DNA of 60,955 nt, filler included. It is 4 parts of 4 records of this genome, joined end to end, with 100 filler letters (N's around TTAATTAATTAA, not from the genome) between each part and the next. Parts side by side here need not be neighbours in the genome. Positions count along the whole stretch, not along the records: positions 38,752 to 53,129 come from SRR20825019_2057; 3 more parts are not named here. One strand, given 5' to 3'. Position numbers and translations under genes: made by a program. Below, piece by piece: positions 30,494-53,509 of this stretch. Under the pieces are notes generated by a model, which saw only the letters and a program-made list of their open reading frames with translations, was not told the origin of the DNA and made no database searches. Position 1 is the first letter of the stretch; the number at the start of each line of letters is the position of its first letter.

Positions 30494-30572
30494 GTTTTTT
30501 ACCTTTTATAATTATATAGACAATTTATGTTAGATATTTAATATACGAGTATATATATAAATACTAGAAAAT

Positions 30573-32968
<2,396 letters not shown>

Positions 32969-33325
32969 TTTATTATCATTAATTGTAACACCAATTATTT
33001 AATTGAATAAAATATAAGGTTAAACTATTTTTCAAGAACTATTATTATATTATAATAATGTCTTCTAATAATTTAAAATACTGTAATATTTTATCTTAAC
33101 TATAAAAATAATTATAATAAAAATTGTAAAAAAATCTATATATACCAGCATAACATATTTTTAAGAGTATATATATTTATCTTTTAAAAGAGGATTACAA
33201 AAATTTTTTATACGATTATTAGTCCCTTAAAAAATTAGACATAATTTTTATACAGAATTTCTATATTGACACATTACAGTGACAGTAGTATTTTTAAATA
33301 TTATAAGAAGATCTGGATTTGCTTT

Positions 33326-34441
33326 ATGGAACAAGTTATAAAAATACTTTCAAAATTAGAAACTGAAGATCAAAAAATAGTAGAATCTTACTTAGACCAA
33401 ATTCACAAAAACAAGAAAAATTATAAAAATTATTCAACTTTGGGTAATTATCTAGCTGTAAAGCAATTTGTTGATACTGCAATAAGTGTTTATTATGAAG
33501 GTATTAATAGTTGTAGAAGTTGCGCTAAGTTATACAGAGAACTAGGTTCATGTTTAAGAAATAATGGAGATCTAAAAGGCGCTTTAATAGCGTATGAAGA
33601 AGGTATTTTTCATTGTCCAGATCATGTTCATCTATATAGTGATTTGGCTTCGTTTCTAACTGCAAATGGAGATGTTAATGCTGCATTTCAGGTATATGAG
33701 CTAGGTATAGATAATTGTTGTTTAAGTATCAAATTACTTAAAGAATATGGTTCAAGTTTATTAAATTCAGGTTATATTGATAGAGCTGTCACTGTATACG
33801 AACATGTTGCAAAAATTAATCCAAGTTATACTAAAATATATATTGAATTGCTTTTAAGTATTATTGATCGTGGAGAAGTTGAGACAGCAAATAGATTTTA
33901 TGAAAGTGCTATGGAGCATTTTCAAGATCATGATTTAATTTATTTAGGGTTTGGTTCTTTTTATAAACAGAAGGGAGATATTAAAAGAGCTATAGAAGTT
34001 CTTGAAGATGGTATTAAAAATTGTACATATAATTGTGAGATATATAGAGAATTAGGCTCATATTTATTTAGTAATTATGAGAGAGATAAAGCTATAAATA
34101 TTTATGAGGAAGGGATAAAAAAATACCCTCAAATACCAAACCTTTATAAGGATTTAGGCGATTCTTTAGGAGTGATTGGTGACTATAATAAGAAATTAGA
34201 AGTTTTTACAAAGGGAGTAATTAAATGTCCTGATAGCCAAGAGCTTAAAATTGATTTAGAAAGTAGCATTAATTATATTACTGGATATATTGATTATTTA
34301 AATAATGAACAATATATTAATATAAGTAATGGTTCATATGAGCAAGCTACAAGATTTTATAATTTTGCATCAGAAATTTATCATGAAACTCATGATACAA
34401 TATCAATAGCTTTAGAGGTACTTGGTAGAAATAATATTTAA
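33326..34441 (+). CDS. tetratricopeptide (TPR/HAT-like) repeat protein
   Basis: About 34-aa periodic 'LYxELGSxL...AIxVYEEGIxxCP' units. ATG 33326 preferred because the TTG start at 33266 is part of a TTGACA -35 box (17-nt spacer, TATTTT at 33289). Confidence 0.8.
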   Translation: MEQVIKILSKLETEDQKIVESYLDQIHKNKKNYKNYSTLGNYLAVKQFVDTAISVYYEGINSCRSCAKLYRELGSCLRNNGDLKGALIAYEEGIFHCPDHVHLYSDLASFLTANGDVNAAFQVYELGIDNCCLSIKLLKEYGSSLLNSGYIDRAVTVYEHVAKINPSYTKIYIELLLSIIDRGEVETANRFYESAMEHFQDHDLIYLGFGSFYKQKGDIKRAIEVLEDGIKNCTYNCEIYRELGSYLFSNYERDKAINIYEEGIKKYPQIPNLYKDLGDSLGVIGDYNKKLEVFTKGVIKCPDSQELKIDLESSINYITGYIDYLNNEQYINISNGSYEQATRFYNFASEIYHETHDTISIALEVLGRNNI

Positions 34442-34581
34442 TTAGATTTCATATATTTTAATATATTTAAGTAATTTTGAAATAATTGCGAAAAATTAGT
34501 ATTTAAGATAAAGCACAAAAAGCAATCCTGTAAAAGATATTTAATATTTTTATATATAAAGTTAAATTACTATTAATATAA

Positions 34582-35262
34582 TTACTTGCACAAACTTATA
34601 ATACCATTATCCATTTTATATGTTTTATCAAACATTTTAGCTATTTGTAGATTGTGAGTTACAACTAAAGCGGATAAAGAATATTTTTTAACCATTTTAA
34701 CAATCATTTCTGCTACATCAATAGAGTTTTTATTGTCAAGATTACCTGTAGGTTCATCAGCAAGAATTAGTTTTGGTTTATTTATTAATGCTCTTGCTAT
34801 AGCAACCCTTTGTTTTTCACCACCAGATAATTCTTCTGGATAATTAAATATTCTAGATTTAAGACCTAGTTCACTTAAAATGTTATCAGCATCTCTCAAG
34901 GATTTTTCATTATTATTACCTCTAATTATAAGAGGCATAGCGACATTTTCTCTTGCATTAAAGTCTTTTAAAAGATGATGATATTGATAAATAAATCCAA
35001 TTTTATTTAATCTAAGTTTATCAATAGCTTTGCTATTCAATGTTTTTAAATTTTGATTTTCAATTTCTATATTTCCTTCATATATTTTATCAAGAGAGCC
35101 AAGTATATGGAGAAATGTTGATTTTCCGCTTCCAGAAGAGCCAAGTATCGAACATATTTCTTTAGATTTTAGCTTAAAATTTATAGAATTTAACACAGAA
35201 ATTATTGATCTTCCTTGAATATAATTCTTATTGAGATTTTTAACATTTAATATTAATGACAT
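34582..35262 (-). CDS. lolD: lipoprotein-releasing ABC transporter ATPase
   Basis: GSSGSGKS, '[10 protein letters not shown]', LSGGE and 'ADEPTGNLD'. Confidence 0.93.
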
Positions 35263-35327
35263 TATTATAATATTATATTAATTTTAATTATTCTTATAGT
35301 TTTTATTTTAGTCAATATTTCTATTAA

Positions 35328-36575
35328 TTATTCATTTTTTAAAGCAGTTGATGGATCAATGCTTGAAGCTTTATATGCAGGATATATTGTTGCTATAAAG
35401 CTTAAAGATAAAGAAATAAATGAAACTAAAATTATATCATATATTTGTAATTTAGAAGGCAAATAATACAAAAAATAAATTGCAGGCTCAAAAAGTACTA
35501 TATTCGTAAAACTTTCAAGATATGTTCTAATTGTATCAATGTTTTTTGAAAATAATATTCCAGAAATTACTCCCAAACTAGTTCCTAAAATTCCTGTAAA
35601 TGTTCCGGATATAATAAATATTGTCAAAATAGAATATCTACTAGCGCCCATTGTTCTTAATATTGCAATTTCTCTTGTTTTTTCTTTTACTAGCATAAAT
35701 AAACTTGAAATTATATTAAAGGCAGCAACAATAATTATTAGAGTCAAAACCATAAACATAGCAGAACGTTCAATTTTAAGAGCATTTAAAAGTCCACTAT
35801 GAATTTCATGCCAGCATTTTACAGAAAGTATATTTTTATATCTTTTTTTAATTTCTTTTGAAATCTTATCTACATAATTTTCGTTATTTAAGAATATTTC
35901 GATTAAATTTGGATTATTCTTTGTAGATAAAAGTTTAGATGCAAACTTAAAAGGCATAATTACATTTAAGCTATCATAATCATACATGTTACTTTTATAG
36001 ATAGCTGCAACATTAACATCTTTATGTCTTAATATAGGTCCAAGCATAGATGTTACAAAAGATGGTGTGATTATTTTTAAGCTGCTTTTTGGTCCTATTT
36101 CCAGATTTTTCATTAACTCAATACCAATTAATATATTATCTTCTTGATAAAAGGAGTTTAGATTTCCATATTTTATTTTATTAATAATTTGTTTTAAAGA
36201 TGCAAGATGATCAATAGTAATTCCTTTAAGTATAGCACCTCTTGATTGAGTATCACTATTTAAGAGTATTTGACCTGAAACAACTTTATGAATTGATTGA
36301 ATACCAGAAATTTCTTTAATATCATTTATGATCTCTGAACTATTTTCTATGAAATTAGAATATTTACTAGTTATAATAATATCTCCATTTAGACCCCTAA
36401 TGTTAGAAACAAGTTCGTTTCTAAAACCATTCATAACAGACATTACAATGATTAAGGAAGCAACTCCAAGTAATATACCTAAGACTGAAAAAACAGTAAT
36501 TATTGAAACAAGTTTTTCTCTTTTTCTTGCAATAAAATATCTAAGTGAAACTTTTAAAATGAATTTATTAAACAT
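35328..36575 (-). CDS. lipoprotein-releasing ABC transporter permease LolC/E
   Basis: 'SLIIVMSVMNGF', 'VAAFNIISSL' and 'EIAILRTMGA'. Confidence 0.93.
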   Translation of the reverse strand: MFNKFILKVSLRYFIARKREKLVSIITVFSVLGILLGVASLIIVMSVMNGFRNELVSNIRGLNGDIIITSKYSNFIENSSEIINDIKEISGIQSIHKVVSGQILLNSDTQSRGAILKGITIDHLASLKQIINKIKYGNLNSFYQEDNILIGIELMKNLEIGPKSSLKIITPSFVTSMLGPILRHKDVNVAAIYKSNMYDYDSLNVIMPFKFASKLLSTKNNPNLIEIFLNNENYVDKISKEIKKRYKNILSVKCWHEIHSGLLNALKIERSAMFMVLTLIIIVAAFNIISSLFMLVKEKTREIAILRTMGASRYSILTIFIISGTFTGILGTSLGVISGILFSKNIDTIRTYLESFTNIVLFEPAIYFLYYLPSKLQIYDIILVSFISLSLSFIATIYPAYKASSIDPSTALKNE

Positions 36576-37875
36576 TTTTAGCAAAATAATTTTTAGTTAT
36601 TTCTATTATCTTGCCAAGATTTACAATTTTATTCTCACCAGTAATTCTATTAACAAACTCAATATTACCAGAATTTATATTTCGATTTGAAATTATAATC
36701 TGAATAGGGCTTCCAATTAAATTATTATTAGCAAATTTATTACCTCTACTTGAGTTTGTATCATCAATTAAACACTCAATTGAAGCTTCATTTAAATTTT
36801 TGTAGATATTTTCAGCTATATTAGTACAATTTTCATCTTTAAAATCTAAATTTATAATTGATGCTTTAAAAGGTGCTATTTCTTTAGGCCAAATTATACC
36901 TTTTTCGTCGTGATGAGCTTCTATTATAGCTGCAACTAATCTGGATATTCCAATACCGTATGAGCCCATTTTAGGATAAATTTTATTACCAAGTTTATCT
37001 TGTAATTCTACATTTAAAGACTTTGTATATTTATCACTAAAATTAAATATATGTCCTATCTCTATGCCTTTTGATTTTGTAATATTTTCTTTATTTATTT
37101 TTAAGTTATTCGGATCATGTTTTTCTTCTGCTGATGCATATTTATCTATGAAATATTTATGATCAATAGTTTTGTTATTATCTATGTAATCAAAAATATC
37201 AGTTTGGTAAAAAATATTACTTTCTCCGTTTGATGCTATAACATGGAATTCATGACTAAGATCACCGCCAATAGGACCATTTTCAGCTTTTACTGGGATT
37301 ACTTTAATCCCTAGATTCTTAAATATATTAAGATATATATCAAACATCTTAAAATAAGTATTTCTTGAATCTTCTTCACTCATATCAAAACTATACGCAT
37401 CCTTCATTAAAAATTCTCTACCTCTTAAAGTTCCATATCTAGGTCTTATTTCGTCTCTAAATTTCCAAGTTGACTGGAATAATATTATTGGAAGATTTTT
37501 ATGAGAATAAATATTATTTTTAAATATGTCTGTAACTATTTCTTCAGCAGTAGGTGCAAATAAAATCTCTGTTCCATGCCTATCATTCATTTTAAGCATT
37601 TCTTCTCCATAATCATTATATCTTTCAGATATCTTCCATAAATCAGAAGATTGAATACATGGCATAATTAGCTCCTGGCACCCTGATTTTATTAATGTAT
37701 TTCTTATTATATTCTCTATATTCTTAAGTATTTTGACTCCAAGTGGAAGCCAAGAATATATTCCAGAGCTATGCATGCGTATCATACCAGATCTAAGCAT
37801 TAATCTATGTGAAGGAATAATAGCTTCTTTTGGGTTTTCCTTTAATGTTGGAAGAAAAAATTTTGATAGTCTCAT
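36568..37875 (-). CDS. proS: proline--tRNA ligase (short alphaproteobacterial form)
   Basis: 'SHRLMLRSG', 'KFRDEIRPR', 'REFLMKDAYSF' and 'MGSYGIGISR'. Confidence 0.97.
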   Translation of the reverse strand: MRLSKFFLPTLKENPKEAIIPSHRLMLRSGMIRMHSSGIYSWLPLGVKILKNIENIIRNTLIKSGCQELIMPCIQSSDLWKISERYNDYGEEMLKMNDRHGTEILFAPTAEEIVTDIFKNNIYSHKNLPIILFQSTWKFRDEIRPRYGTLRGREFLMKDAYSFDMSEEDSRNTYFKMFDIYLNIFKNLGIKVIPVKAENGPIGGDLSHEFHVIASNGESNIFYQTDIFDYIDNNKTIDHKYFIDKYASAEEKHDPNNLKINKENITKSKGIEIGHIFNFSDKYTKSLNVELQDKLGNKIYPKMGSYGIGISRLVAAIIEAHHDEKGIIWPKEIAPFKASIINLDFKDENCTNIAENIYKNLNEASIECLIDDTNSSRGNKFANNNLIGSPIQIIISNRNINSGNIEFVNRITGENKIVNLGKIIEITKNYFAKNV

Positions 37876-37958
37876 CTTGTGTTACGTATTTTTATATTAT
37901 AAATTATGTTTAATTTTAATTATTTATTCATTATAGCATAATAAATATATAAATCTAT

Positions 37959-37987
37959 TTGACAGGGTTATTATCTATGTGTATTCT
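37959..37987 (+). promoter_or_regulatory. sigma70 promoter of rpmB-rpmE
   Basis: TTGACA (37959-37964), 17-nt spacer ending in TGTG, TATTCT (37982-37987). Confidence 0.65.
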
Positions 37988-38039
37988 GCTTCGCTATGGT
38001 ATATTAATAACCAAATATAACTAATTTATTGCAATAATT

Positions 38040-38336
38040 ATGACTAGGGTATGCGAGTTAACTGGAGTAAGAACTAGATCTGGAAATAATGTTTCTCACT
38101 CTGTCAGAAGAACTAAAAGAAAATTTGTACCAAATTTGCATAGTTTACGTTTATATAGCGAAGCTCTTGCAAGTAAGTTTAGATTAAGAATTTCAGCTGC
38201 TGCATTAAGAACAGTAGAGAAGTTTGGTGGCCTTGATAAGTATATTACATCATGCTCAAACGATAATTTATCTAAAAATGCTAAAGCTTTAAAATTTAGA
38301 GTACTTAATAAATTAGAAAGAAAAAGTCAGAGTTAG
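38040..38336 (+). CDS. rpmB: 50S ribosomal protein L28
   Basis: 'RVCELTG...GNNVSHS..RTKRKFVPNL'. Confidence 0.96.
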   Translation: MTRVCELTGVRTRSGNNVSHSVRRTKRKFVPNLHSLRLYSEALASKFRLRISAAALRTVEKFGGLDKYITSCSNDNLSKNAKALKFRVLNKLERKSQS

Positions 38337-38345
38337 ATTAGGACT

Positions 38346-38576
38346 ATGAAAAAAGATATTCACCCAAAATATAAAGAATTAAAATTAAAAATCGGTAATG
38401 ACGTTTTTTATACAAGATCTACTTACAAGCAAAATGAGCTTTTAGTAGATATTGATTTCAGGAAACATCCTGCATGGACTAAAAAAGGAATGGGTTCTCT
38501 TAGTGCAACAAGTAAGAATGTTACTTCTTTTAACCAAAAATTTGCAGGACTGGATTTTGGAATTAAAAAATCCTAA
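38346..38576 (+). CDS. rpmE: 50S ribosomal protein L31 (cysteine-free form)
   Basis: 'MKKDIHPKY...DIDFRKHPAWT'. Confidence 0.94.
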   Translation: MKKDIHPKYKELKLKIGNDVFYTRSTYKQNELLVDIDFRKHPAWTKKGMGSLSATSKNVTSFNQKFAGLDFGIKKS

Positions 38577-38612
38577 TATTTAGTATCAATTTAATTTAAT
38601 TTTAATTATTAT

Positions 38613-38651
38613 CGCGGGGTAGAGCAGCCCGGTAGCTCGTCAGGCTCATAA
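38613..38651 (+). tRNA. initiator tRNA-fMet(CAT), 5' half (truncated by the contig end)
   Basis: CGCGGGGTAGAGCAGCCCGGTAGCTCGTCAGGCTCATAA is the typical 5' half of the initiator tRNA. Confidence 0.92.
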
Positions 38652-38751
38652 NNNNNNNNNNNNNNNNNNNNNNNNNNNNNNNNNNNNNNNNNNNNTTAAT
38701 TAATTAANNNNNNNNNNNNNNNNNNNNNNNNNNNNNNNNNNNNNNNNNNNN
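38652..38751. other. artificial contig linker; boundary between Rickettsiales-like and Bacteroidota-like DNA
   Basis: N44-TTAATTAATTAA-N44, with an abrupt change in base composition and gene affinity on either side. Confidence 0.97.
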
Positions 38752-39230
38752 GGAAATTTCATCGCATCCTGAATAAAGAAGATGGGCATGTTGTTTCCCA
38801 CCAAATCCCATGTACCTTCTTGGGTGTAAAATTTTACTGCGAAACCTCTCACGTCCCTGGCCAAATCGGTGGAACCTTTGGAACCGGCCACTGTTGAAAA
38901 CCGAACAAAGACTGGGGTTTTCCTTGTAGTATCGGTAAAAATCCCTGCCTTTGAATATTTTTCGATGCTCTCATAGAGTTCAAAATAGCCGTGGGCACCA
39001 CTACCCCGGGCATGCACAATGCGTTCAGGAATACGTTCGTGGTCAAAATTTGTTATTTTTTCCCTGAGCAAGAAATCTTCCAACAGAGTGGCCCCTCTTT
39101 CTCCAGCCTTTAATGAATTATTGGTATCGTTGACCTTGACCCCTTGTCTTGTGGTCAAAGGTTTATTTGAATAATCAATGGAACTTTTATTCAATTGTTG
39201 TTTCTTTTTCGAATTTTTTTCAGACGTCAT
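38752..39230 (-). CDS. katE: large-subunit catalase HPII, N-terminal part (truncated by the linker)
   Basis: '[15 protein letters not shown]', '[26 protein letters not shown]' and 'DLVGNN'. Confidence 0.93.
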
Positions 39231-39739
39231 GGTTACCTTTTTTAGATTTAAGTAATGAATATAGGTGAGCGTCCAAGCTTAGGGTGATCCAATAAAATAA
39301 AATATTGCCTCATAAATTCATTGCCATCATTTATATCCAAATATGGATGAAACTGGTGAATCAAGTCAATGGCAAAAGTATACGGATAAGCACAGTCGTT
39401 CCGACCCCATGCTTTAAAAATGCCGCTATGGTGTACAATGGAATATTTAGGATAATGGTTATCATTGACATGTTTTTTTTAGTTCCCTTCAAATTTAATC
39501 CACTGTTATTGAAGCAAAGCCACGGAATTGAACCCATGAACTGTGAGACCAATGCAATGTATCTTAATGTGATTCAGATTATCAATCTTTGGATTTGGGC
39601 TGGTACCCTTACTTTTTCGGTGTAATAATTATTGCTTTAACGCTAAGGACAACCTTGGTTTTGGATTACCTTTTTTCCATGATTCCCATTTATCTTTCAA
39701 ATGGCCAATTATGGTGAACACCGTATAAAAAAAAGGAAA

Positions 39740-40768
39740 ATGAAAAAGGATGTATATGATAATATTTTGGATACCGTAGGCAATACGCCACTAATCCAAA
39801 TGAATAGAATGTTTAACAACAGGCATACTCTTTTTATTAAAATGGAAGGACTAAATCCGGGCGGAAGCATGAAGGATAGGACAGCAAGTCTCATTATTTC
39901 TGAAATGCTACGTGCTGATGAAATACGCCACGGGGGCACCATTATAGAAAGCAGTTCCGGAAACATGGCCATTGGTCTGGCCCAGGCATGTCTTTATCAT
40001 GGGCTGAATTTAATCGTTGTGGTCGATATTAATTTAAACCCACACACACGAAAGTTGCTCCGTGCCTATGGAGCTAAAATCGTGACAGTACATGAGCCTC
40101 ATCCCAAGGGTGGTTTTTTGGCCGCAAGATTGGAAACAGTGAACGAATTGTTGACCAGGGTACCCAACTCTGCTTGGACGAACCAATATCAGAACCCGAA
40201 CAATCCCAAGGCTTACCAAAGAACCATGACCGAGATAATGCAAGCCTTGGATAACAATCTGGATTATTTGTTTGTGGCCACAAGCACTTGCGGTAGTCTT
40301 ATGGGATGTATAGATTATGTGAACTCTAAAGAATTAAAGACAAAGATTATAGCTGTGGATGCGGTAGGAAGTGTTCTCTTTGGTGATAAAGTTGGAAAAC
40401 GACTTATTCCAGGACATGGTGCAGGTGTGGCATCTCATTTTTTGGATAGGGACAAGGTATTTGATGTAATCCATGTCAGTGATGCAGAATGTGTACAGGG
40501 GTGCCGAAAACTTTTGCAACAGGAAGCTATCTTGGCAGGAGGATCATCTGGAGGTATTTTCACTGCCTATCAAAAGTACAGGCACAGGTTGCCACAAAAT
40601 TCAAGGTCGGTACTTTTATTCGCGGACAGGGGAGAGCGCTATCTCGATACAATTTACAATCCAGATTGGGTAAAACAACATATTGAAATGGAAAAAGCGA
40701 TCACAAATCCACTACAAGAAAAAAAGATAAATAATAACAAACGACTTTATGAGCATGTCCGCATTTAA
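39740..40768 (+). CDS. SbnA-type PLP-dependent cysteine-synthase-family enzyme (O-phosphoserine beta-replacement)
   Basis: 'NPGGSMKDR' (PLP lysine), 'ESSSGN', 'GGFLAAR', 'NQY', 'ATSTCGSLMG' (instead of the CysK GxGTGG) and 'RLIPG'. Start is ATG 39740 or 39701. Confidence 0.88.
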   Translation: MKKDVYDNILDTVGNTPLIQMNRMFNNRHTLFIKMEGLNPGGSMKDRTASLIISEMLRADEIRHGGTIIESSSGNMAIGLAQACLYHGLNLIVVVDINLNPHTRKLLRAYGAKIVTVHEPHPKGGFLAARLETVNELLTRVPNSAWTNQYQNPNNPKAYQRTMTEIMQALDNNLDYLFVATSTCGSLMGCIDYVNSKELKTKIIAVDAVGSVLFGDKVGKRLIPGHGAGVASHFLDRDKVFDVIHVSDAECVQGCRKLLQQEAILAGGSSGGIFTAYQKYRHRLPQNSRSVLLFADRGERYLDTIYNPDWVKQHIEMEKAITNPLQEKKINNNKRLYEHVRI

Positions 40769-42563
40769 GGTCGCGATTGTAGGTTTGGGGCCAAAAGGTT
40801 TGTTTGCCTTCGAAAGATTATTGTCTCATTTGTACAATTCGGATTTTGCAAAGGAACTGGAGGTGAATCTTTTTGAAAAAACCGGGAATTTTGGGGCGGG
40901 AAAAATCTATGACCCCCTTCAACCGGATTATCTTTTGATGAACTACCCCAACCGAAACATCAATGTTTGGCCTGAAGCCTATACTGCCGAGTTGCCCATT
41001 GATGCACTATCGTTTTCGGAGTGGTTGGCTAAAAGAAAAAATTGTTCCGTTCGGGAAGTTATTGATGAATTTGCGCCTAGAGCATTGGTGGGCACCTATC
41101 TAATGGAGTGTTTTGAAAAGCTAAATGAAATAGGCAATTCCTTTTGTAAGATCAAAAAGCATAAAGCTGCTGTTTTTGATATTTTGTCCATGGGTGAAAA
41201 AACTTGTCTGCTATATCAGGATCCCAAGTCGCAAAACCAGTCTAGGTTAAATGTTGATGAACTCTTGCTTACCACGGGGCATTGCAGTTGGAAAGGAAGG
41301 TTGGAACGCAATCAAAACAATGCGTCGAGAGCTGAAGGTGGCCCCGTTAATATACCTTTTGTTTATCCACTACGGCAGAAAATGTCAGGAATTTCAGAAA
41401 ATTCTATAGTAGGGATCAAAGGATTGGGCCTAACTTTTATCGATACGGTACTAGCCTTGACAGAAGGGAGAGGTGGGCACTTTAGTTCCCAGGAGAATGG
41501 AGCTTTAATGTATCATGCGTCCCAAAAAGGGCCAAAACAAATCATTGCATTCTCCCGAACTGGTCTGCCCATGGTTCCCCGGTCTTCCCACGAGGGCAAA
41601 AAGAAATATAGACCAGTATATTTTACTCACCACAATGTTCATGATCATTTAGATGGTAATGGTAAGCCCAGTTTTGAAGAACATATATGGCCTTTGTTCA
41701 AACTGGAGACAACATACAGGTATTATAAGGTGCTATTTGAAACATACGGTCTAACCATGCATCCGGGAGAAAGTGCCGAAACACTTCAAAAGCAGATAGA
41801 AAAATTCCATAGTAAATTTACAGATGAGCCAAGGTTCAATTTCGCCAATCTTTTCAATCCGGTGGACTTTAGTGATCCAAATACAAAACTTGCACCATTG
41901 GTGTATTTTAAATATGTGCTTGGTCAAGCAGAACTTGGGTCGGAAAAAAGCCCATTTATGGCGGCTGCGATGACTTGGGGGCAGATAGGAGAAACATTTA
42001 ACGATATGTATCGATTCGGTGGAATGACGCCCGATTCACACGAGGTGTTTGATAAAAAATATCGCTCCAAGCTCAACCGTATCTCTTACGGTCCACCGTT
42101 GGAGAATATACAAAAAATGATTGCACTCGTTGATTCAAGCATTTTAAATTTGAATTATTCGGAAAACCCGGAAATTAAAGAAGTTGATAAAGGTTGGAGG
42201 CTAAAGACGCCAAAAATACCGCCAATCACTGTTGATACCATGATTGATGCCCGTATTCCTACCAATGTTTCATGCCAAGATTGGTCTGAATTGCTAACCA
42301 GAATGCGCCAAAGAGGAGAAATCCGTGAGTTTTTAATAGGGGATAAGCACACCACTTATCGAACGGCTTGCCCGGAGATTGACCATAAAGGAAATGTTGT
42401 TGCTCAAAATGGTGGTGCCAATCCAAGGATTACGTTATATGGAACTTTGACAGAAGGGATTACCTACGACAACGATTCGCTTTCCCGCTACCGAAATAAT
42501 ATGGCTTCGAGCTGGGCAAAGGGAATCACGGAGCGTAATGTTAAATTAGTGCTGAAAGCATAA
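40749..42563 (+). CDS. FAD/NAD(P)-binding flavoprotein resembling CreE/FzmM amino-acid N-monooxygenases
   Basis: 'IVGLGPKGLFAFERL', 'GAGKIY..LQPDYLLMN', second Rossmann 'KGLGLTFID', 'LTEGRGGHF', 'SRTGLP' and 'YGPP'. Confidence 0.75.
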   Translation: MSMSAFKVAIVGLGPKGLFAFERLLSHLYNSDFAKELEVNLFEKTGNFGAGKIYDPLQPDYLLMNYPNRNINVWPEAYTAELPIDALSFSEWLAKRKNCSVREVIDEFAPRALVGTYLMECFEKLNEIGNSFCKIKKHKAAVFDILSMGEKTCLLYQDPKSQNQSRLNVDELLLTTGHCSWKGRLERNQNNASRAEGGPVNIPFVYPLRQKMSGISENSIVGIKGLGLTFIDTVLALTEGRGGHFSSQENGALMYHASQKGPKQIIAFSRTGLPMVPRSSHEGKKKYRPVYFTHHNVHDHLDGNGKPSFEEHIWPLFKLETTYRYYKVLFETYGLTMHPGESAETLQKQIEKFHSKFTDEPRFNFANLFNPVDFSDPNTKLAPLVYFKYVLGQAELGSEKSPFMAAAMTWGQIGETFNDMYRFGGMTPDSHEVFDKKYRSKLNRISYGPPLENIQKMIALVDSSILNLNYSENPEIKEVDKGWRLKTPKIPPITVDTMIDARIPTNVSCQDWSELLTRMRQRGEIREFLIGDKHTTYRTACPEIDHKGNVVAQNGGANPRITLYGTLTEGITYDNDSLSRYRNNMASSWAKGITERNVKLVLKA

Positions 42564-42565
42564 TT

Positions 42566-44053
42566 ATGAAAGAGAAAATAAAAAAGTATAGAAAATCACA
42601 GGGGCCACATCCATTGACCCCAATAACCAGTTCGTGGATGCACAAAACCATGGATAATCGCGAACAAATCAATAAATTAATGGAAACATATGGTTCTCCT
42701 ATCAATTTACACTACCTGCCATCCTTTACCAAAAACATTAAAGACTTTCAAGATGTATTCAAAAAACATAAAATAAACGGGCAAATCTATTTTGCCCGAA
42801 AAGCCAACAAGTCTAAAAGTCTGGTCAAGGAAGCTTTATCGTGTGGTATTGGAGTGGATACCGCAAGTTACCAAGAATTGCACGAGGCTTTGGCCCTGGG
42901 TGGCAATGCAGAAAATTTGGTGTTGACCGCTGCCATTAAAACTAGACCGCTGATGGAATTGGCCGTAAAGCATAACATCGCGATAATAATCGATAATTAT
43001 GATGAGCTCGAATTGGTTCAGAAGGTGGCCCAAGAATTTAACTGCTTGGCCAATATTGGGATTCGGTTAAGTGGATTTACCGTGAATGGCCAAAAGCTGT
43101 ACAGTAGGTTTGGATTTGACATCGATATCGAAAAGAATAAACTTGTCGAATGGTTAGGAGACAGATCAAAATCCAATAACGTTCTTCTTACCGGTGTCCA
43201 CTTTCATTTAGATGGGTATTCCATTGAGCAAAGGGCAGAAGCGATATTACAAACCTTGGATGTAATAGAAGAATTTGAAATAGCAGCTGCTAAAATTTCG
43301 TTTCTGGATATTGGTGGCGGCATATTGATGAACTATTTGGAGTCAAAAACAGAATGGGAACAATTCCAAGACCGTTTGCAGCGGGCAGTACTGGAGAAAG
43401 ATGCACCGATTACATTTAAAAATAATGGTCTTGGGTTTGAAAAGAATTCCCAAGGGGACGGTATTTCCGGTGAGCTTAAGACATATCCCTATTTCAATCA
43501 AATTTATGGCCCTGCGTTTTTAGAACAAATTCTTACTTATAAACGCCCAGGTGATAAACCGGTTTTGCAATATGTTAGGGATAAAAACATTCAATTACGA
43601 ATAGAGCCGGGTCGGTCGTTATTGAGCCAAGTGGGCCTTACCATTGCGAAGATTGTACATAGAAAGAAGGATTCTGAAAATAATTGGTTGGTTGGGCTGG
43701 ATATGAACATGAGCCAGCTCAAAAGCTCTAGTGCCGATTTTCTTTTAGACCCGTACATTATGTATGCAGACCCAATGGAGACTGTTGAAAATACAGCATT
43801 ATATTTTACCGGAGCCTATTGTCTTGAACAAGATGTAATTCTAAAAAGAAAGCTATCCTTTCCTAAACTACCTCAAACAGGTGACTTTGCAGTTTTTGTG
43901 AATACTGGTGGATATATGATGCATTTTTATGAAACAGAAGCACACCTTTTCAGTTTATCAAAGAACTTTTATATACCCGATGATAATGAAGGTATTCTTC
44001 AGGATGATACCCTATTTGAAAAGATTGGGGACGAGGATTTGATTGAACATTAG
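42566..44053 (+). CDS. Y4yA-family fold-type III PLP-dependent decarboxylase (LysA/SbnH-like)
   Basis: 'FARKANK' (PLP lysine), 'HFHL', 'DIGGG', 'EPGRSL', 'GAYCLE' and 'NTGGY'. Confidence 0.85.
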   Translation: MKEKIKKYRKSQGPHPLTPITSSWMHKTMDNREQINKLMETYGSPINLHYLPSFTKNIKDFQDVFKKHKINGQIYFARKANKSKSLVKEALSCGIGVDTASYQELHEALALGGNAENLVLTAAIKTRPLMELAVKHNIAIIIDNYDELELVQKVAQEFNCLANIGIRLSGFTVNGQKLYSRFGFDIDIEKNKLVEWLGDRSKSNNVLLTGVHFHLDGYSIEQRAEAILQTLDVIEEFEIAAAKISFLDIGGGILMNYLESKTEWEQFQDRLQRAVLEKDAPITFKNNGLGFEKNSQGDGISGELKTYPYFNQIYGPAFLEQILTYKRPGDKPVLQYVRDKNIQLRIEPGRSLLSQVGLTIAKIVHRKKDSENNWLVGLDMNMSQLKSSSADFLLDPYIMYADPMETVENTALYFTGAYCLEQDVILKRKLSFPKLPQTGDFAVFVNTGGYMMHFYETEAHLFSLSKNFYIPDDNEGILQDDTLFEKIGDEDLIEH

Positions 44054-44266
44054 TTAAAAAAGTAGTTCGGTTTCCTTTTGTAGGTTCAGGAAATTTACAG
44101 GAATCCAATACGCAATTAATCCTTCCAAAGCATAATTATCCAAGTACAATTTCTCGATGGATTTCTTCATGCTAAATAATTGAATTGTTTGCATCAAAAA
44201 GAAATTTATATAAGGCAATTTCTTTAAAATAAATAGGATACGTTTATAAGAACAAAAAGATAAATT

Positions 44267-44668
44267 ATGAAAGTACAAGCCTATTTGGCCTTTAGGGGCA
44301 ATTGCCAAGAAGCCCTTGATTTTTATGCAAATTGTCTGGGGGCAGAGATAAAAAATAGACAGACCTATGCCGATAGAAAAATTGATGTTCCCGATGAATA
44401 TAGAGATTGCCTGCAACACGCTGAATTGAAAGCGGATGGTGTGGATTTTATGGCATATGATGCTACCCCTGATACGCCTTTGACGGATGGCACAAAAATC
44501 CATTTGAGCATTGATGTCGACACTAAGGAAAAGGCCCAAGAGATTTTTGAACAGCTTTCATCGGGAGGCCGCGTTCATCATGAGCTTCGCCAGCGAGAGT
44601 GGAATGCATTGTTTGCCAGGTTTACCGATAAATACGGTATTAACTGGATGCTTAATTGTGACCTTTAA
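44267..44668 (+). CDS. VOC family protein (PhnB/YjdN-like)
   Basis: 'YLAFRGNCQEALDFY', 'QHAEL' and 'DKYGINWMLN'. Confidence 0.9.
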   Translation: MKVQAYLAFRGNCQEALDFYANCLGAEIKNRQTYADRKIDVPDEYRDCLQHAELKADGVDFMAYDATPDTPLTDGTKIHLSIDVDTKEKAQEIFEQLSSGGRVHHELRQREWNALFARFTDKYGINWMLNCDL

Positions 44669-44929
44669 TTAAAGAGGTTATCTGGGTTATGTTGAAGGTT
44701 TCATTGATAAGATGAATACTTTAATGAGTGGTTCAAATTTCATAAAATTACTGAGGTATTCTGTCCCAATGGTATTACCATTGTAAGATACATTGCAAAA
44801 ACTTACAAATGAATGTGATATGGGACCTTGTAGAAAAGTTAGTCAAGAGAAGTGGTGCCACACGCTTCTCAGCAGTTCAGGGACACTGCAAGTGATTCCA
44901 TTTTGGTTTCCATTAATTTATATATTCAT

Positions 44930-45493
44930 TTAATTGTTTTTATCGCTTTTTTCTTTTCCTGTTTTTTCGTCTTCGCTGACTGTGAGATAATGATCGGTTT
45001 TTCCCAAACCTACAATTTTAATAATATTCACAACGGTGTTATAGAGCATGAGAACAACAACGATCAATCCCGCACTCAACAGGCTCGATATACCTAAACT
45101 GGTGTAGTATATAATAGTAAACCAATGGTCTGCTACATTGTCCGATTCGGTGATGGGTAGGTTGAATAGAAGAAAAGACATCAATGCTGCTATAAAAACA
45201 ATGGTATCGAACTTTGCGATCTGGAGGACATGGAGATAATGATCATCTTTTAATTTGGATTTGGTCCCAGAACTCAACCCTAAAAGGGTCAGTAATAAAG
45301 TAAGTGTGGTGGCGGAAGCTAGCACTATGGTATTGCATAGCATATTTAGACCTGAGAGTGAATTTTTAATCAATACTTTGGCTTCGTAACCACTAAGTTC
45401 ACCTAAAAGAAAAGAGCCCGTTAAAATAACGATTAACGATATCGCACCTCCTGTTAAGGCTCTTTTGGTATATGTGCTAGTTTGTAAATCCAT
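44930..45493 (-). CDS. hypothetical membrane protein (about 4 TM)
   Basis: 187-aa ORF with four hydrophobic segments and normal codon usage. Confidence 0.7.
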   Translation of the reverse strand: MDLQTSTYTKRALTGGAISLIVILTGSFLLGELSGYEAKVLIKNSLSGLNMLCNTIVLASATTLTLLLTLLGLSSGTKSKLKDDHYLHVLQIAKFDTIVFIAALMSFLLFNLPITESDNVADHWFTIIYYTSLGISSLLSAGLIVVVLMLYNTVVNIIKIVGLGKTDHYLTVSEDEKTGKEKSDKNN

Positions 45494-45572
45494 TACACTT
45501 CAATTTTGGTTCAAACGGTACTGTTGGGTACTTGACATTATATGGGTTTGGTCCAAAGACCGGTTTGTTTGT

Positions 45573-46208
45573 TTACTTCCTTATAGGTTCGGTCCTGACT
45601 GGAAATCCATTTGATTTAATAGAACATAATTTGGTCAAGAAATGGGCATAGCCAAAGGAATCGTCGATATGTAGATTGATGGAATCAATCATTTCTGCAA
45701 AGATGGTTCCGTCGACTTTCAAGGATTCTTCCCCAAACCATTCCAAGGCAAAGGTATACCACACTTCGCCATAAACTTTAACGGTTGCATATTCTACTTG
45801 ACATCCAAAAGGAAGATGTTCCGTAATGGATACGGGCTTGATTGCACCATTTTCTTCGGTTAGCTGTACAAGCATTAGTTCTTTTTGGACAGGAATCCAA
45901 TTACAATGTTTAAAATCAGTTATTCGGGAAAACACAGAGTCTTGCTCCTGCACATTGAAGCTCCATTTTATGAACTCATCAAAACAGCCCCAAATGTTAT
46001 CGTTGAGACCACCATATCCCCTTGTGCCCACACGATGTTTTACTTCGATTTTGCCTTCGCGCAGCTTTATACCGATATCTTCATTGTTGATATCGAGATA
46101 AAAATCGGTCCTCAACCGTTTTGAAGTACAATTGAGGTGTTGGAACCAATGCGCCAATAGTTCTTTTTTTTCTTGAAAAAACCATCTTATTTCTTTGGTC
46201 CTGTACAT
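45573..46208 (-). CDS. CYTH-like (triphosphate tunnel) hypothetical protein
   Basis: From ATG 46208: 'KEIRWFF', 'RTDFYL', 'IKLREGKIEVK' and 'KWSF'. Confidence 0.6.
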   Translation of the reverse strand: MYRTKEIRWFFQEKKELLAHWFQHLNCTSKRLRTDFYLDINNEDIGIKLREGKIEVKHRVGTRGYGGLNDNIWGCFDEFIKWSFNVQEQDSVFSRITDFKHCNWIPVQKELMLVQLTEENGAIKPVSITEHLPFGCQVEYATVKVYGEVWYTFALEWFGEESLKVDGTIFAEMIDSINLHIDDSFGYAHFLTKLCSIKSNGFPVRTEPIRK

Positions 46209-46438
46209 AGTCTCTTGTTTTTCATCATGGGTAAATAAGTAAATTAGTAAAATATTATGTGAGCGAATGACTTCAAAACAGTAAAGTTTAACTGTAAGCG
46301 TTAAGTGGTACAACCAACTGGTGCCAACACGTATAGAGTCCACAGGATTTTTCGTTACATCAATTGAATAGAAACCTTAGAACTACTTTTAATGTGGATG
46401 CTAAGCGGTAGGTATATTTGTAACCGCATTTTAATAAT

Positions 46439-46672
46439 ATAAACAACGGTTTAAAGGAAATTGAGGACACTATTAATGAGATTATTCAAAATAATAAGGA
46501 TGCCATAAAGGGGTATGAAAAGCCATCCGAAAATGCCAAATAAGCTGGACTGAAAAACTATTTTCGTACCAAATCCAAAGAAAGAAGCAATTTTCTTGTT
46601 GGATTAAAAGATTCTGCATCGGCGTGTGATACCCGGGATGGAAAAATACAATTTCAGGATACTATTGATTGA
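46439..46672 (+). pseudogene. PA2169/DUF2383 four-helix-bundle protein remnant
   Basis: Translates (ATA)NNGLKEIEDTINEIIQNNKDAIKGYEKPSENAK*AGLKNYFRTKSKERSNFL. ATA stands in place of the start codon, there is an internal TAA at 46541-46543, and the C-terminal part is lost. Confidence 0.7.
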
Positions 46673-46699
46673 TGGGCACACTAATGACACTTCACTGGA

Positions 46700-47131
46700 T
46701 TAATTATAAATAGTAAAAACACTTGTATTACTATTAATGGTCATTTGCCAATCCTGAAGATTTTTTACACACTTATAAATCAAGGTTTTTAATTGATTGT
46801 AAGACGTAGGCTTTCTGAGATACCCTGCGGCCCCCATTCTATGAAGCCGTTCTATTTCAGTCTTAAGAAACGATGTGGAATAAATGATTACCGGAATGTT
46901 TTTGAATTTTTCATCATTTCGGATATCTGACAAACATTCAAATCCGTTCATCATTGGCATGTTTAAATCCAAAAAAATAACATCGGGAAGTTTTTCCTCG
47001 GAATATAAGTTTCCCATTAAACATACGCCATCTGCAAAGGTCGAGGTTTCAATGGTTAAAGGGATCTCTTTCAAGGCTTCGGAAAAAAACAGCCTGTCAT
47101 CTTCGTCGTCGTCAGCTAAAAAGATATTCAT
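46700..47131 (-). CDS. stand-alone response regulator receiver protein
   Basis: 'LADDDEDD', 'FLDLNMP', 'YSTS' and 'YLRKP'. Confidence 0.92.
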   Translation of the reverse strand: MNIFLADDDEDDRLFFSEALKEIPLTIETSTFADGVCLMGNLYSEEKLPDVIFLDLNMPMMNGFECLSDIRNDEKFKNIPVIIYSTSFLKTEIERLHRMGAAGYLRKPTSYNQLKTLIYKCVKNLQDWQMTINSNTSVFTIYN

Positions 47132-47198
47132 GATTTAGTTGAGTTTTTAAAGATTGATTTATGTTTAAGAGAGGATTTGGTTTTCTTTAATTAATGTA

Positions 47199-47639
47199 CT
47201 ATCCCATTTCGTATAATATGGATTGAAAGTCCCTAATATTGGATTCCGTTTTTTTAAGGTGGCTTTTAAGCACATTTTTAGTTTTACGATCTATCTCCTG
47301 GTGTTCTAACAAGCTTTTGTAATCATCTTCCTTATTTCGTTCCGCTTTAATTAAACTAGCCCAAACAGAAGCATTGTCACCAACATCCGGCAGTGGTCTG
47401 GGAAACCAATAAATAGCTCTTTGGTCGGTGAGCCTTTCACTGCTTTCCACATCACCACCCAAGTCTGAAATATTTTTAATAAGCTCTTCAGCTTCCTTTT
47501 CGGCTATTTCTTCAAGTTGATTTAATTTATCTGTAGTTGGTGGATGTGTAATGGAATCAGCCAATTTTTGAAGAACTTGTTTATAATCCAAGGTATTGGT
47601 CAAAATTTTATTCAATACATCTATTATGTTGTTTTCCAT
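47199..47639 (-). CDS. ferritin-like / DUF2383-like four-helix protein
   Basis: Helical 146-aa ORF with 'LNKIL', 'ELIKNISDLGG' and 'LIKAE...DDY'. Confidence 0.55.
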   Translation of the reverse strand: MENNIIDVLNKILTNTLDYKQVLQKLADSITHPPTTDKLNQLEEIAEKEAEELIKNISDLGGDVESSERLTDQRAIYWFPRPLPDVGDNASVWASLIKAERNKEDDYKSLLEHQEIDRKTKNVLKSHLKKTESNIRDFQSILYEMG

Positions 47640-48159
47640 GGAACTCTAATTTTATCTGACGGGTTAACGTTAAAACACATTACAATAAACCAATGGCAAT
47701 GTAAAGTTTCAATTCTTAAAAGAATAATCCATTTGCACGAATTAGTAACTCGAAAAAAAATGGACTTTTTCGGATAAATGGTTCGTTTTATATCCAGTGG
47801 TTTCTGTCTATTAGAGTTCCATATGGCGGTATAACAGATGGATCTGTGCTTTATTTCTATTAGGATTTTGCTACTTAGAGGGAGCAAGTAATAATATCGC
47901 TTTTTTAGGAACAGGAATATGGCCAGTACACTTTGATTCTATAGATTTAAAACAGATCTCTCACTGCCCTTTGACGGTCTGAACAATCGAAAGATCTGTC
48001 TTGCTCTGTGCCTATCGCTTGGTCGCGATGAATAAGCGCTCCCAATAACCCCATGGGTGCGCGTAACGCTGATTACTGCGTCGATATCGCCCTTTTGAAC
48101 CTTCATCACAGCTATTGAATCGAACTATGAAGGATTGAGACTGTCCAATGGTAAATCGA

Positions 48160-48489
48160 AAAAATTAAATTTCATCCGATGCTGGTGCAATTGAGTATGT
48201 ATGTGTCTTTATGGCTAAGGAAGTTGGTATGGAAATTAATCCCTACCAATGACCTCACCTTTTCATCCGGTTCACAGGGACATCAGGGCACCCTGGGGAT
48301 GGGAGAAGGATAGTCGCCCTCAGTTACATTTACTGAAATTAGGGGAGAAAGCCAGTCTAAAACAATCCAAGGTCAATGAAATTATTGAGCAAATTAAATA
48401 CGCTCTATTATTGGGAGGATTTACCTGATGAACATGGTGTGACAAAAACGAATATCAATTTTATTCAATCCAGAATGGCAACTGTTTGA
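48160..48489 (+). pseudogene. HipA-family kinase toxin remnant
   Basis: Fragments in shifted frames: 'SDAGAIEYVCVFMAKEVGMEI', 'DLTFSSGSQGHQGTLGMGEG*' and 'HLLKLGEKASLKQSKVNEIIEQIKYAL'. The catalytic core between them is missing. Confidence 0.6.
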
Positions 48490-49648
48490 TCGAGACAAAC
48501 GGGGAATGGTAATTACAGATAAGTAGGTGATGACAGATATTTCCTTTATTTTGGGCGGTTCTATTTATCATTTGTAGTAGGCTTCAGTATCTATTTTATG
48601 GTATTAGTTGTCCATAACAACTTGATTCAGAGCAACAAAACCCAATTATTGGTTAGCTTTATTTTCCCAATCCTTAATATAGGTATCCAAGTTAATCGAC
48701 CAGATAGCATTTTTTAGAATCATATTGACAATCAACATATGCCCATGCTTTTGTTTCCTTGTCTTCAGCGTGCTTACGATTCTCCATGATTTTTAAAAAG
48801 TCATAATAAACCTGGTAAACCGAACATCTTCAGGAGGGGGGTCAGTGCTCCATCACAACAGATCGGAAGGGGTATTGTTGGAAGCAAAACGCATATCAGT
48901 AAAATCCTCTGATAATCTAGCGGAAGTGGTTTATGTACTCGAATTCTCTGATTATGCACAATTCTCAAAGTTTTTTAAGCAAAATATGCATTATTCCTAG
49001 TGATTTTCAAAAACATACCTATAAGATATTTGAGTATTTAGTGATTGGTAGACTTCAAAAGATATGGTTTCTTTTCAAAGGGTTGGTAAATAGCATGGAA
49101 GGCAACTTTATGGCCTGACATATGTCCAGTTTGAAAGAAAGGTCTTATTTTTAAAGAGAATAGCTTTTTTGGTGGCTCAGAAATTCTCAGTTTATGTCGT
49201 TTTATTTTTAAACCTTTCCCTTTTGTATATATCGCTTGTGGTTCATTATCCTTTTTCTCTTTTCGAGTGTTTACTTATCCGTTGTTTACATTTCTGGAGT
49301 TCGATTCGATTAATCATTTGAAATCAATAACATGAAAAATACTTTAAAGATCTTTATATTGCTTATAACTATGATCTTCATATCCTAAAAAGCTGGAATT
49401 CCTGCGTCAGGGCTTACCGGTTACGGATTTATTCTGATCCTAATCTTGTTATATTAAAATAGGTGGCCATACCAATGTTGATTTAAAAGGAACCTGTATG
49501 ATTTCCAGCAGTTATAGCTTTCTATCATAAAAAAAAGCTAAAGGATAATTAGGCCAATGATTAACGATCAATACTATGACAGACCAGTATACAATGTCTT
49601 ACAAAGAAAATCAACGTTTGCGAAAAGTATATATTTAAAGAGTGAATT

Positions 49649-51037: not shown

Positions 51038-51043
51038 AATAGT

Positions 51044-51136
51044 ATGAAAGTCATTTGGAACATTCAGAGTGTGGCCGAGGCAAAGGGAATCGCCGGTTAT
51101 TATACTTTTTGGAACTATATGAAAGTTGAGGAATAA
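51044..51136 (+). pseudogene. 30-aa DUF427-like minigene (in-frame internal deletion)
   Basis: MKVIWNIQSVAEAKGIAGYYTFWNYMKVEE; its stop overlaps the egtB ATG (TAATG). It resembles the N-terminus (MKAIWN...AE) and C-terminus (A..I.GY..FW..V.V.E) of DUF427 proteins joined together. Confidence 0.55.
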
Positions 51137-52284: not shown

Positions 52285-52291
52285 TTCGAAA

Positions 52292-53129: not shown

Positions 53130-53229
53130 NNNNNNNNNNNNNNNNNNNNNNNNNNNNNNNNNNNNNNNNNNNNTTAATTAATTAANNNNNNNNNNNNNNN
53201 NNNNNNNNNNNNNNNNNNNNNNNNNNNNN
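53130..53229. other. artificial contig linker
   Basis: N44-TTAATTAATTAA-N44. Confidence 0.97.
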
Positions 53230-53508: not shown

Positions 53509-53509
53509 T

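Follow-up and report, generated by a model that had tools for sequence, protein, structure and literature searches.

A compact cassette of three co-oriented genes was found at positions 39740–44053 of the window, the whole stretch of 60,955 nucleotides (filler included) that was analysed, in which four contigs are joined end to end; the trio lies on the third of them (SRR20825019_2057). The genes encode a predicted SbnA-family enzyme dependent on pyridoxal 5′-phosphate (PLP), a class-B flavin monooxygenase with the fold of the L-aspartate N-hydroxylase FzmM, and a Y4yA-type PLP decarboxylase. Across the 80 related loci compared, the trio is conserved as a unit without an adjoining SbnB, lyase, synthetase or transporter, which bears out its preliminary description as an orphan cassette. 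The reading that we favour, while giving it somewhat less than an even chance, is an SbnB-independent route in which a phosphoserine adduct would be formed, N-oxygenated and decarboxylated to an ethylenediamine-type product. What would be new is SbnA-type diamine building with a flavin monooxygenase in the place of SbnB; the SbnA-type formation of 2,3-diaminopropionate (Dap) has been thought to need SbnB. A few hundred species appear to run SbnA-type chemistry with a flavin monooxygenase, which is sometimes fused to the SbnA-like enzyme. No published description of the trio was returned by a literature search that left most subscription journals and supplements outside its reach, in line with the earlier suggestion that the cassette is undescribed. 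On SbnA in Bacteroidota, the one pertinent paper deals with ordinary sbnA/sbnB sub-clusters within loci for non-ribosomal peptide synthetases.

Layout, conservation and distribution of the trio

All three genes are intact, full open reading frames (ORFs) on the + strand, according to the ORF listing and translation. Gene 1 (39740..40768; 342 amino acids, aa; TIGR03945, PDB 5d84), for the predicted SbnA-family β-replacement enzyme, overlaps by 20 nt (40749–40768) gene 2 (40749..42563; 604 aa; PF13454, 8cp2 fold), for the class-B flavin monooxygenase of a putative sister subfamily of FzmM/CreE, and gene 3 (42566..44053; 495 aa; PF02784), for the Y4yA-type fold-type III PLP decarboxylase, follows after a gap of 2 nt (42564–42565), as the tight coupling first reported had implied. 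An alternative upstream ATG at 39701 would give gene 1 355 aa, and the start originally chosen at 39740 suits the 342-aa orthologs at two of the related loci (L001 and L002) better.

The flavoprotein search returned 419 matches, nearly all from marine Bacteroidota, and a one-genome-per-species scan confirmed 300 relatives, the best 80 of which supply the locus counts given here. These 80 loci come mostly from Flavobacteriaceae, Cyclobacteriaceae and other Bacteroidota, together with two metagenome-assembled genomes that are otherwise labelled. By tblastn, a strong SbnA-like match lies directly upstream of the flavoprotein at 77 of the 80 loci, the remaining three being one cut by the contig start, one too near a contig end and one with a weak match (L080), and the decarboxylase lies directly downstream at 79, with two cut by contig ends, two in two pieces and none in L080. 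When all ORFs of at least 90 aa within 10 kb of the trio were clustered, the only general families were those of the trio itself (80, 77 and 71 loci), and the next neighbours recurred at 21, 20 and 17 loci. No SbnB and no lyase, synthetase, exporter or receptor was conserved in cis within these 10 kb.

Gene fusions were also found. ORFs of 851–949 aa that join the SbnA-like enzyme to the flavoprotein occur at six of the 80 loci (L051, L056, L058, L059, L066 and L070), in Mesonia, Salegentibacter and Zunongwangia, and P0119 and P0120 (936–938 aa), among the matches listed in the flavoprotein search, are fusions of the same kind. P0123 (1207 aa) joins the flavoprotein to a decarboxylase, with 34% identity to gene 3 over 455 aa.

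The trio was also found on Sulfitobacter pontiacus plasmids and on one Chondrinema litorale plasmid, and, among 301 genomes sampled from the family to which the trio-bearing genome G001 belongs, 10 had it; record titles place alga-associated hosts among its bearers. It is a patchy, horizontally mobile module, mainly of marine Bacteroidota plus roseobacter plasmids. Its patchy spread and plasmid copies, the alga-associated hosts and the VOC gene that lies downstream in 17 of the 80 loci would suit a unit that degrades or detoxifies an amino acid or opine of environmental (algal) origin; this is highly improbable, however, since the β-replacement reaction of the SbnA family builds C–N bonds, the phosphoserine-binding residues are intact, and no catabolic-type transporter or regulator is conserved near the trio at the 80 loci.

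Enzyme families and the proposed pathway

Gene 1 scored 397 bits on TIGR03945, the SbnA equivalog model for N-(2-amino-2-carboxyethyl)-L-glutamate synthase (cut-off 350, exactly 349.95), which justifies the SbnA-type label it had been given, and it fell far under all cysteine-, cysteate- and cystathionine-synthase cut-offs in the NCBIfam scan. Its closest PDB match by phmmer was Staphylococcus aureus SbnA (5d84, E 8e-73), in which Lys47, the loop 72–78, Arg132, Gln151/Tyr152 and Ser185 correspond to K58, ESSSGNM 83–89, R143, Q162/Y163 and S195 of gene 1. In the available text of PMC12414870, the selectivity of SbnA for O-phosphoserine is ascribed to Arg132, Tyr152 and Ser185; judged from the alignment, gene 1 retains the predicted catalytic Lys and these selectivity residues.

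The genome content of trio-bearing organisms was sampled in five genomes, namely two Flagellimonas, two Maribacter and one Algoriphagus. Each contains exactly one SbnA-family gene over the cut-off, the trio's own, with orthologs scoring 389–410 bits on TIGR03945, and each also contains separate CysK/CysM-like genes. SbnB (TIGR03944) was over its cut-off in none of the five (best 57 bits vs 327), and IucA/IucC was found in none of them and conserved across none of the 80 loci. An SbnB or NRPS-independent siderophore (NIS) synthetase partner gene elsewhere in the genome, which had been named as a way in which a known pathway might be completed, was thus lacking in all five related genomes. The preliminary description had itself argued from the absence of SbnB, lyase, synthetase, exporter and receptor genes from the contig; this argument is invalid because the window is made of concatenated contigs, and its basis was 14.4 kb together with unrelated DNA. 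That the trio is what contig ends have left of a staphyloferrin-like cluster was considered and rejected, as complete genomes have the same isolated trio.

In staphyloferrin B biosynthesis, according to the accessible parts of PMC12414870 and bioRxiv 10.1101/763607, SbnA condenses O-phosphoserine with L-glutamate to N-(2-amino-2-carboxyethyl)-L-glutamate, or ACEGA, oxidative cleavage of which by SbnB gives L-Dap, and an aminoethyl unit remains once SbnH has decarboxylated a Dap conjugate. The trio resembles this system in the SbnA catalytic and O-phosphoserine residues, in an intermediate redox step and in a fold-type III PLP decarboxylase, which in the trio would yield an ethylenediamine unit. 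It differs in that the five related trio-bearing genomes are without SbnB and NIS synthetases, the redox step falls to a flavin monooxygenase that uses O2 and NADPH, the decarboxylase belongs to the Y4yA type and the gene context is not iron-related.

Gene 2 has PF13454 (FAD-NAD(P)-binding) as its sole Pfam match, and its sole sequence relative in the PDB is 8cp2/8cp5, the L-aspartate N-hydroxylase FzmM of Streptomyces sp. V2 (phmmer, E 1e-27), which a profile of 36 family members matched over the full length (7–565, E 4.7e-53). The AlphaFold model of gene 2 (predicted local distance difference test, pLDDT, 91.4) has the three-domain fold with a helical substrate domain that is a feature of FzmM, and its best Foldseek match was again 8cp2 (template-modelling score, TM, 0.83; 22% identity), vs TM of at most 0.47 for SidA, PvdA, DfoA and Tmm. 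A search of the ESM Atlas gave generic 'FAD/NAD(P)-binding' clusters and nothing more specific.

The available text of PMC10404684 describes an aspartate entry chamber in FzmM made of Arg13, Arg276, Asn413, Arg416 and Arg577 and sulfate-binding residues Arg266, Arg409, Arg412 and Arg416, all of which true homologs keep, and it reports that the mutation N413E abolishes Asp hydroxylation. These positions were compared, via pairwise and profile alignments, in 36 members of the gene 2 family including the query, picked from 120 listed matches. The catalytic Asn62, over the flavin in FzmM, is Asn in 36/36 (N65 in gene 2), and the GxGPKG dinucleotide-binding motif is invariant. Several basic residues are kept as well: the Arg13 site is Lys in 36/36, the Arg266 site is Arg in 35/36 and the Arg577 site is Arg in 34/36, while the Arg409 site is Arg in 20/36 and Gly in 13/36 (Gly in gene 2). 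By contrast with FzmM, the Arg412 site is Ser in 29/36 and Arg in none, the Asn413 site is Glu or Asp in 19/36 (Glu in gene 2), the Arg416 site is Asn in 33/36 and Arg in one, and the Arg276 site is variable.

Gene 2 has thus kept the fold and catalytic apparatus of the CreE/FzmM-like N-oxygenase it had been taken for, while the Asp-binding residues have been replaced; judged by its aligned residues, it belongs to a subfamily sister to FzmM/CreE rather than to the nitrosuccinate synthases. Conversion of Asp to nitrosuccinate or nitrite, as initially entertained, is unlikely because the aspartate-binding residues of FzmM are not conserved in the 36 members, and since several basic residues are kept and the Asp side-chain site is lost, the substrate is probably a different but still anionic amino acid. 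A true aspartate N-oxygenation, in which N-hydroxy-aspartate or nitrosuccinate (hence nitrite or 3-nitropropionate) would be consumed by the two PLP enzymes, could draw on the full-length homology, the FzmM fold, the catalytic Asn and the retained Arg/Lys residues; the changes at the Arg412, Asn413 and Arg416 sites, of which Glu at Asn413 is the very substitution that inactivates FzmM, nevertheless make it very unlikely, and no lyase family is conserved in cis at the 80 loci. No CreD/FzmL-type lyase partner was found in cis, families outside the trio reaching at most 21 of the 80 loci, in a search for lyases that did not extend genome-wide. Compared with FzmM, CreE and AlaI as a group, the trio protein shares the three-domain fold, the class-B flavin/NADPH apparatus and the catalytic Asn, whereas it differs in its low identity to FzmM, in the replaced Arg cluster and Asn413, in having no nitrosuccinate lyase in cis and in being fused or coupled to an SbnA-like enzyme.

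Gene 3 contains the PF02784 N-domain of Orn/DAP/Arg decarboxylases (DAP, diaminopimelate) and scored under the equivalog cut-off for lysA (TIGR01048; 132.6 vs 297.9 bits). Its structure model (pLDDT 87.3) has the two-domain alanine-racemase-like barrel plus β-domain fold, and full-length Foldseek matches were a D-Orn/D-Lys decarboxylase, DAP decarboxylases, BtrK and an N-citrylornithine decarboxylase, with E down to 8e-26. No variation was seen among the 31 aligned orthologs at K79-A80-N81, G250-G252, E347-R350 and C419, blocks which we take to be the PLP-lysine (KAN), GGG phosphate-loop, EPGR and catalytic Cys motifs. The NCBIfam scan of gene 3 matched no Y4yA model; the Y4yA-type label used from the start is nonetheless sustained by PF02784 together with the Y4yA-named homologs, namely Y4yA of pNGR234a itself (29% identity over 95% of the query, E 2e-45 by tblastn) and nearer homologs on plasmids (38–51% identity) for which the Prokaryotic Genome Annotation Pipeline gives the name 'Y4yA family PLP-dependent enzyme'. 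A literature search on 'Y4yA' found no paper whose title or abstract treats its biochemistry.

The three families also bear on a sulfur route, in which sulfide or a thiol would be added to phosphoserine, S-oxygenated to a sulfinate or sulfoxide and decarboxylated to a hypotaurine- or taurine-like product or an S-substituted cysteamine oxide with antioxidant function. Known sulfinoalanine decarboxylases, for their part, have a different PLP fold, which counts against such a route. It would suit the catalase and EgtB/EgtD genes on the trio contig, the EgtB-family gene that adjoins a catalase on the Chondrinema plasmid, and the presence among the structural relatives of gene 2 of Tmm, a class-B monooxygenase that also oxidises dimethyl sulfide; cysteine, moreover, binds SbnA as an inhibitor according to the available part of PMC12414870. 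We regard this route as quite unlikely, given that gene 1 lies over the SbnA cut-off and far under those for cysteine and cysteate synthases, that the five genomes have their own CysK/CysM-like genes, and that an amino-acid N-hydroxylase is by a wide margin the closest flavoenzyme to gene 2.

Comparable gene sets are known elsewhere. In Streptomyces alanosinicus, the cluster for L-alanosine (ala) has both the SbnA-type formation of Dap and a CreE-type flavoenzyme, and it also N-hydroxylates Dap, as set out in the available text of bioRxiv 10.1101/763607; it is the only described cluster found to combine these three features. Unlike the trio, it has SbnB (the AlaA/B pair), a CreD homolog, a two-component N-hydroxylase, an adenylation domain, a peptidyl carrier protein and a thioesterase, its CreE homolog makes nitrite from aspartate, and no decarboxylase is described for it in that part of the same source.

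More distant relatives were found on two plasmids. The module of pNGR234a (L082, 87761–94378) contains y4yA, a cysteine-synthase-family gene, an octopine/nopaline-dehydrogenase-family gene, IucA/IucC and a major facilitator superfamily (MFS) exporter, and that of Mycobacterium avium pMAH135 (L083, 105451–110942) contains a cysteine-synthase-family gene, an ornithine cyclodeaminase, Y4yA and a multidrug and toxic compound extrusion (MATE) exporter. Like the trio, both combine an SbnA-like enzyme, an oxidoreductase and a Y4yA decarboxylase; they differ in that the oxidoreductase is NAD(P)-dependent and that exporters or a synthetase are attached. By analogy, the occurrence of three oxidoreductase types with SbnA-like and Y4yA enzymes suggests that the middle redox step may be interchangeable, and the two plasmid modules may make related ethylenediamine-type metallophores. 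The pNGR234a module is embedded in a type III secretion region, and the pMAH135 module lies beside copper-resistance genes.

Ethylenediaminedisuccinate (EDDS) offers a further parallel, as the EDDS genes of Amycolatopsis japonicum are said to encode SbnA-like, SbnB-like and DAP-decarboxylase-like enzymes that build an ethylenediamine core without non-ribosomal peptide synthetase (NRPS) or NIS enzymes. That system is reportedly zinc-regulated, exported and actinobacterial, and has no flavin monooxygenase. The difference of the EDDS pathway from NRPS and NIS routes is stated in the available text of PMC4993170.

In view of such systems, the trio could be imagined as a precursor supply that makes Dap or ethylenediamine for a siderophore, a metallophore or a non-ribosomal peptide whose synthetase is encoded elsewhere, as with SbnA/B/H and EDDS. 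Gene 1 is indeed an SbnA-family member, the decarboxylase shares its fold class with SbnH-type enzymes, and the NGR234 and M. avium relatives come with IucA/IucC and an MFS exporter and with a MATE exporter, respectively. We nevertheless consider precursor supply unlikely: IucA/IucC was absent from all five trio-bearing genomes (a search not extended to NRPS genes elsewhere), within 10 kb the 80 loci share no recurrent family of synthetases, exporters or receptors, and the neighbours are stress genes and not iron genes.

In the SbnB-independent route that we favour, the SbnA-family enzyme would convert O-phospho-L-serine to a PLP-aminoacrylate, to which the amine of an amino acid would be added; by analogy with SbnA, this nucleophile would be L-glutamate, and the result an N-(2-amino-2-carboxyethyl) adduct of the ACEGA type. 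The FzmM-fold monooxygenase would then N-oxygenate the bridging secondary amine with NADPH and O2, or, in an alternative order, the amino acid could be N-hydroxylated before its use by the SbnA-like enzyme, giving the same N-hydroxy adduct. The flavoenzyme would in either case do the job of the missing NAD-dependent SbnB. Dehydration of the N-hydroxy adduct could lead to the same imine as that formed by SbnB, and its hydrolysis to a 2-oxo acid and Dap, while a second oxidation could lead to a nitrone and then to N-hydroxy-Dap. The Y4yA-type decarboxylase would remove the α-carboxylate to leave an ethylenediamine-type product, possibly with an N-hydroxy group, or it might act on the intact adduct instead. 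The use of the product would probably be intracellular, in general or oxidative stress. That the flavoenzyme replaces SbnB was one of two options put forward before, and it is the reading favoured here too; what we infer are the product, with any N–O group that survives in it, the identity of the nucleophile, which atom is oxygenated, which of the last two steps comes first, and the role.

The order of the enzymes also separates this route from one to a heterocyclic β-substituted alanine, in which the decarboxylase and the flavoenzyme would build an N–O heterocycle or hydroxylamine (e.g. an isoxazolinone from a β-amino acid) and the SbnA-like enzyme would attach the alanyl unit. Plant cysteine synthases form isoxazolinonyl-alanine, and the chemistry is known from plant and insect pathways. 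Such a scheme would give a role to all three enzyme types, and the SbnA–flavoprotein fusions are compatible with a flavoenzyme product feeding the SbnA-like enzyme. It is extremely improbable, however, as the gene order and the P0123 fusion place the decarboxylase after the flavoenzyme and the nearest fold-type III decarboxylases act on diamino or basic amino acids.

A more specific form of the favoured route is rather unlikely as a whole. Here the product would be an undescribed compound in which a scaffold of ethylenediamine type, or one of N-(2-aminoethyl)-amino-acid type, bears an N-hydroxy group or has become a nitrone. It would be formed via FzmM-fold secondary-amine N-oxygenation of an opine-like SbnA adduct in place of SbnB, and within the cells of marine Bacteroidota and roseobacters it would scavenge radicals or peroxide or, as a stress protectant, buffer metals. 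If the proposed route is true, the FzmM/CreE family would gain a second substrate class besides aspartate, the uncharacterised Y4yA decarboxylase family would get a role, and the trio would amount to a small, transferable set of three genes for making a metabolite of the ethylenediamine or N-hydroxy-diamine type.

Several points weigh against the SbnB-independent route. To replace an NAD-dependent dehydrogenase by a class-B monooxygenase is costly, since NADPH and O2 are spent, and we know of no FzmM-family member that acts on a secondary amine. Evidence on partners at the genome-wide level covers SbnB and IucA/IucC only. The analogy of interchangeable oxidoreductases is one with distant relatives, because SbnA, the best model for the PLP enzymes of pNGR234a and pMAH135, gave only 236 and 235 bits vs a cut-off of 350, and the pMAH135 cyclodeaminase reached 93 bits vs 327 on the SbnB model. 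P0123 is a lone high-GC sequence with an Arg/Ala-rich low-complexity tail of ~290 aa, and its fusion may be a gene-calling or read-through artefact. Among RNA sequencing runs, only one matched the region 39231–44700, at a 0.05 share of sampled words. The association with stress genes is drawn without a matched random-window control, and many of the loci come from related genera, at least 13 from Maribacter.

Gene neighbourhood and a possible role in stress

Recurrent neighbours within 10 kb of the 80 loci were identified by Pfam scans. The most frequent was a DUF2383 protein (21 loci), followed by the VOC gene directly downstream on the same strand, the ribosome hibernation factor S30AE (14), YetF (13), a large catalase (11), DUF3891 (9), a response regulator (5) and polyphosphate kinase (4), and, with VOC left out of the count, 46 of the 80 loci have at least one stress-type neighbour. 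If a genome of 4–5 Mb carries one or a few copies of the large catalase, 80 random windows of 20 kb should include it well under once. These recurrent stress-type neighbours back the link to stress that the preliminary description had guessed at in proposing a stress protectant. The company of large catalase, DUF2383, ribosome hibernation factor and ergothioneine genes suggests a role in the stress survival of abundant marine heterotrophs.

The trio contig itself carries a catalase fragment, a VOC gene, a response regulator and a DUF2383 protein and, farther off, EgtB- and EgtD-like genes. The VOC/glyoxalase-family gene (44267..44668, + strand; PF00903/PF06983) lies 213 nt downstream of the trio and could be an optional accessory. 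Upstream, and divergent from the trio, lies the 5′ fragment of a catalase gene (38752..39230, − strand; PF00199 positions 1–135 of 383). Of the two flanking genes named at first, the VOC gene therefore stands as described, whereas 'katE' amounts to its first ~160 codons only, cut by the linker that ends at 38751. The response regulator (46700–47131) and the DUF2383 protein (47199–47639) were both found on the − strand by Pfam scan, and a pyridine-nucleotide-disulfide oxidoreductase occupies 49649–51037. The EgtB-like gene (51136–52284; FGE-sulfatase plus DinB_2) and the EgtD-like gene (52292–53129; Methyltransf_33), the latter truncated by the contig end, follow it and resemble a two-gene ergothioneine pathway. 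In Flagellimonas abyssi this block is upstream of the trio, not downstream. The neighbours of the trio on the Chondrinema plasmid include a catalase gene and one of the EgtB family.

A molybdopterin oxidoreductase pair, made of a MoCoBD large subunit and a 2Fe-2S protein, always lies divergently upstream of the trio in Maribacter (14 Maribacter/Sediminicola loci, e.g. L011, 5935–8650), which is genus-level synteny.

Composition of the window and other features

A linker scan by script resolved the window into four contigs joined by three artificial six-frame-stop linkers of the form N44-TTAATTAATTAA-N44, at 26098–26197 (joint 1), 38652–38751 (joint 2, the left edge of the trio contig) and 53130–53229 (joint 3, its right edge). 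The pieces differ in GC content, with 0.288 for piece 1 (1–26097), 0.274 for piece 2 (26198–38651), 0.389 (38.9%) for piece 3 (38752–53129), the Flagellimonas-like contig of 14.4 kb that carries the trio, and 0.329 for piece 4 (53230–60955). Operons, islands or GC shifts inferred across the joints are artefacts, and a genomic-island border at the GC jump was ruled out because the jump coincides with an artificial contig joint.

Scans for regulatory elements around the trio were negative. The Rfam scan of the trio contig, with E up to 0.1, found no riboswitch or other RNA; sigma-70 promoter-like sites were rarer than in shuffled sequences (16 vs a mean of 20.1), in a scan that does not cover Bacteroidota promoters; the terminator scan found none convincing 3′ of the trio; and upstream k-mers in 77 loci had no motif in common beyond close relatives.

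The trio piece is 81–96% identical at the DNA level, with one rearrangement, to contig C32 of Flagellimonas abyssi. A class-II aminoacyl-tRNA synthetase gene of piece 2 (36568–37875), on the other hand, had only 24% partial matches in two Flagellimonas genomes. The window therefore mixes organisms, and the record has the look of a mixed bin or of a host assembled together with an associate. Five non-RNA sequencing runs, which belong to two studies and carry five different organism labels, contain the region 39231–44700 in full, as would suit a Flagellimonas-like bacterium that accompanies other sequenced organisms.

On piece 2, the last ~40 bases (38600–38651) resemble the 5′ half of a tRNA gene truncated by the contig end, a place at which ARAGORN makes no call; at the opposite end of the piece, ARAGORN places a tRNA-Ser(tga) at 26198–26286. 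On the trio contig, a region of about 1.7 kb (47890–49650) has no ORF of more than 64 aa on either strand and no Rfam match at E up to 0.1, yet it is 94% identical to F. abyssi; it may represent the remains of a gene or a non-coding element not yet described.

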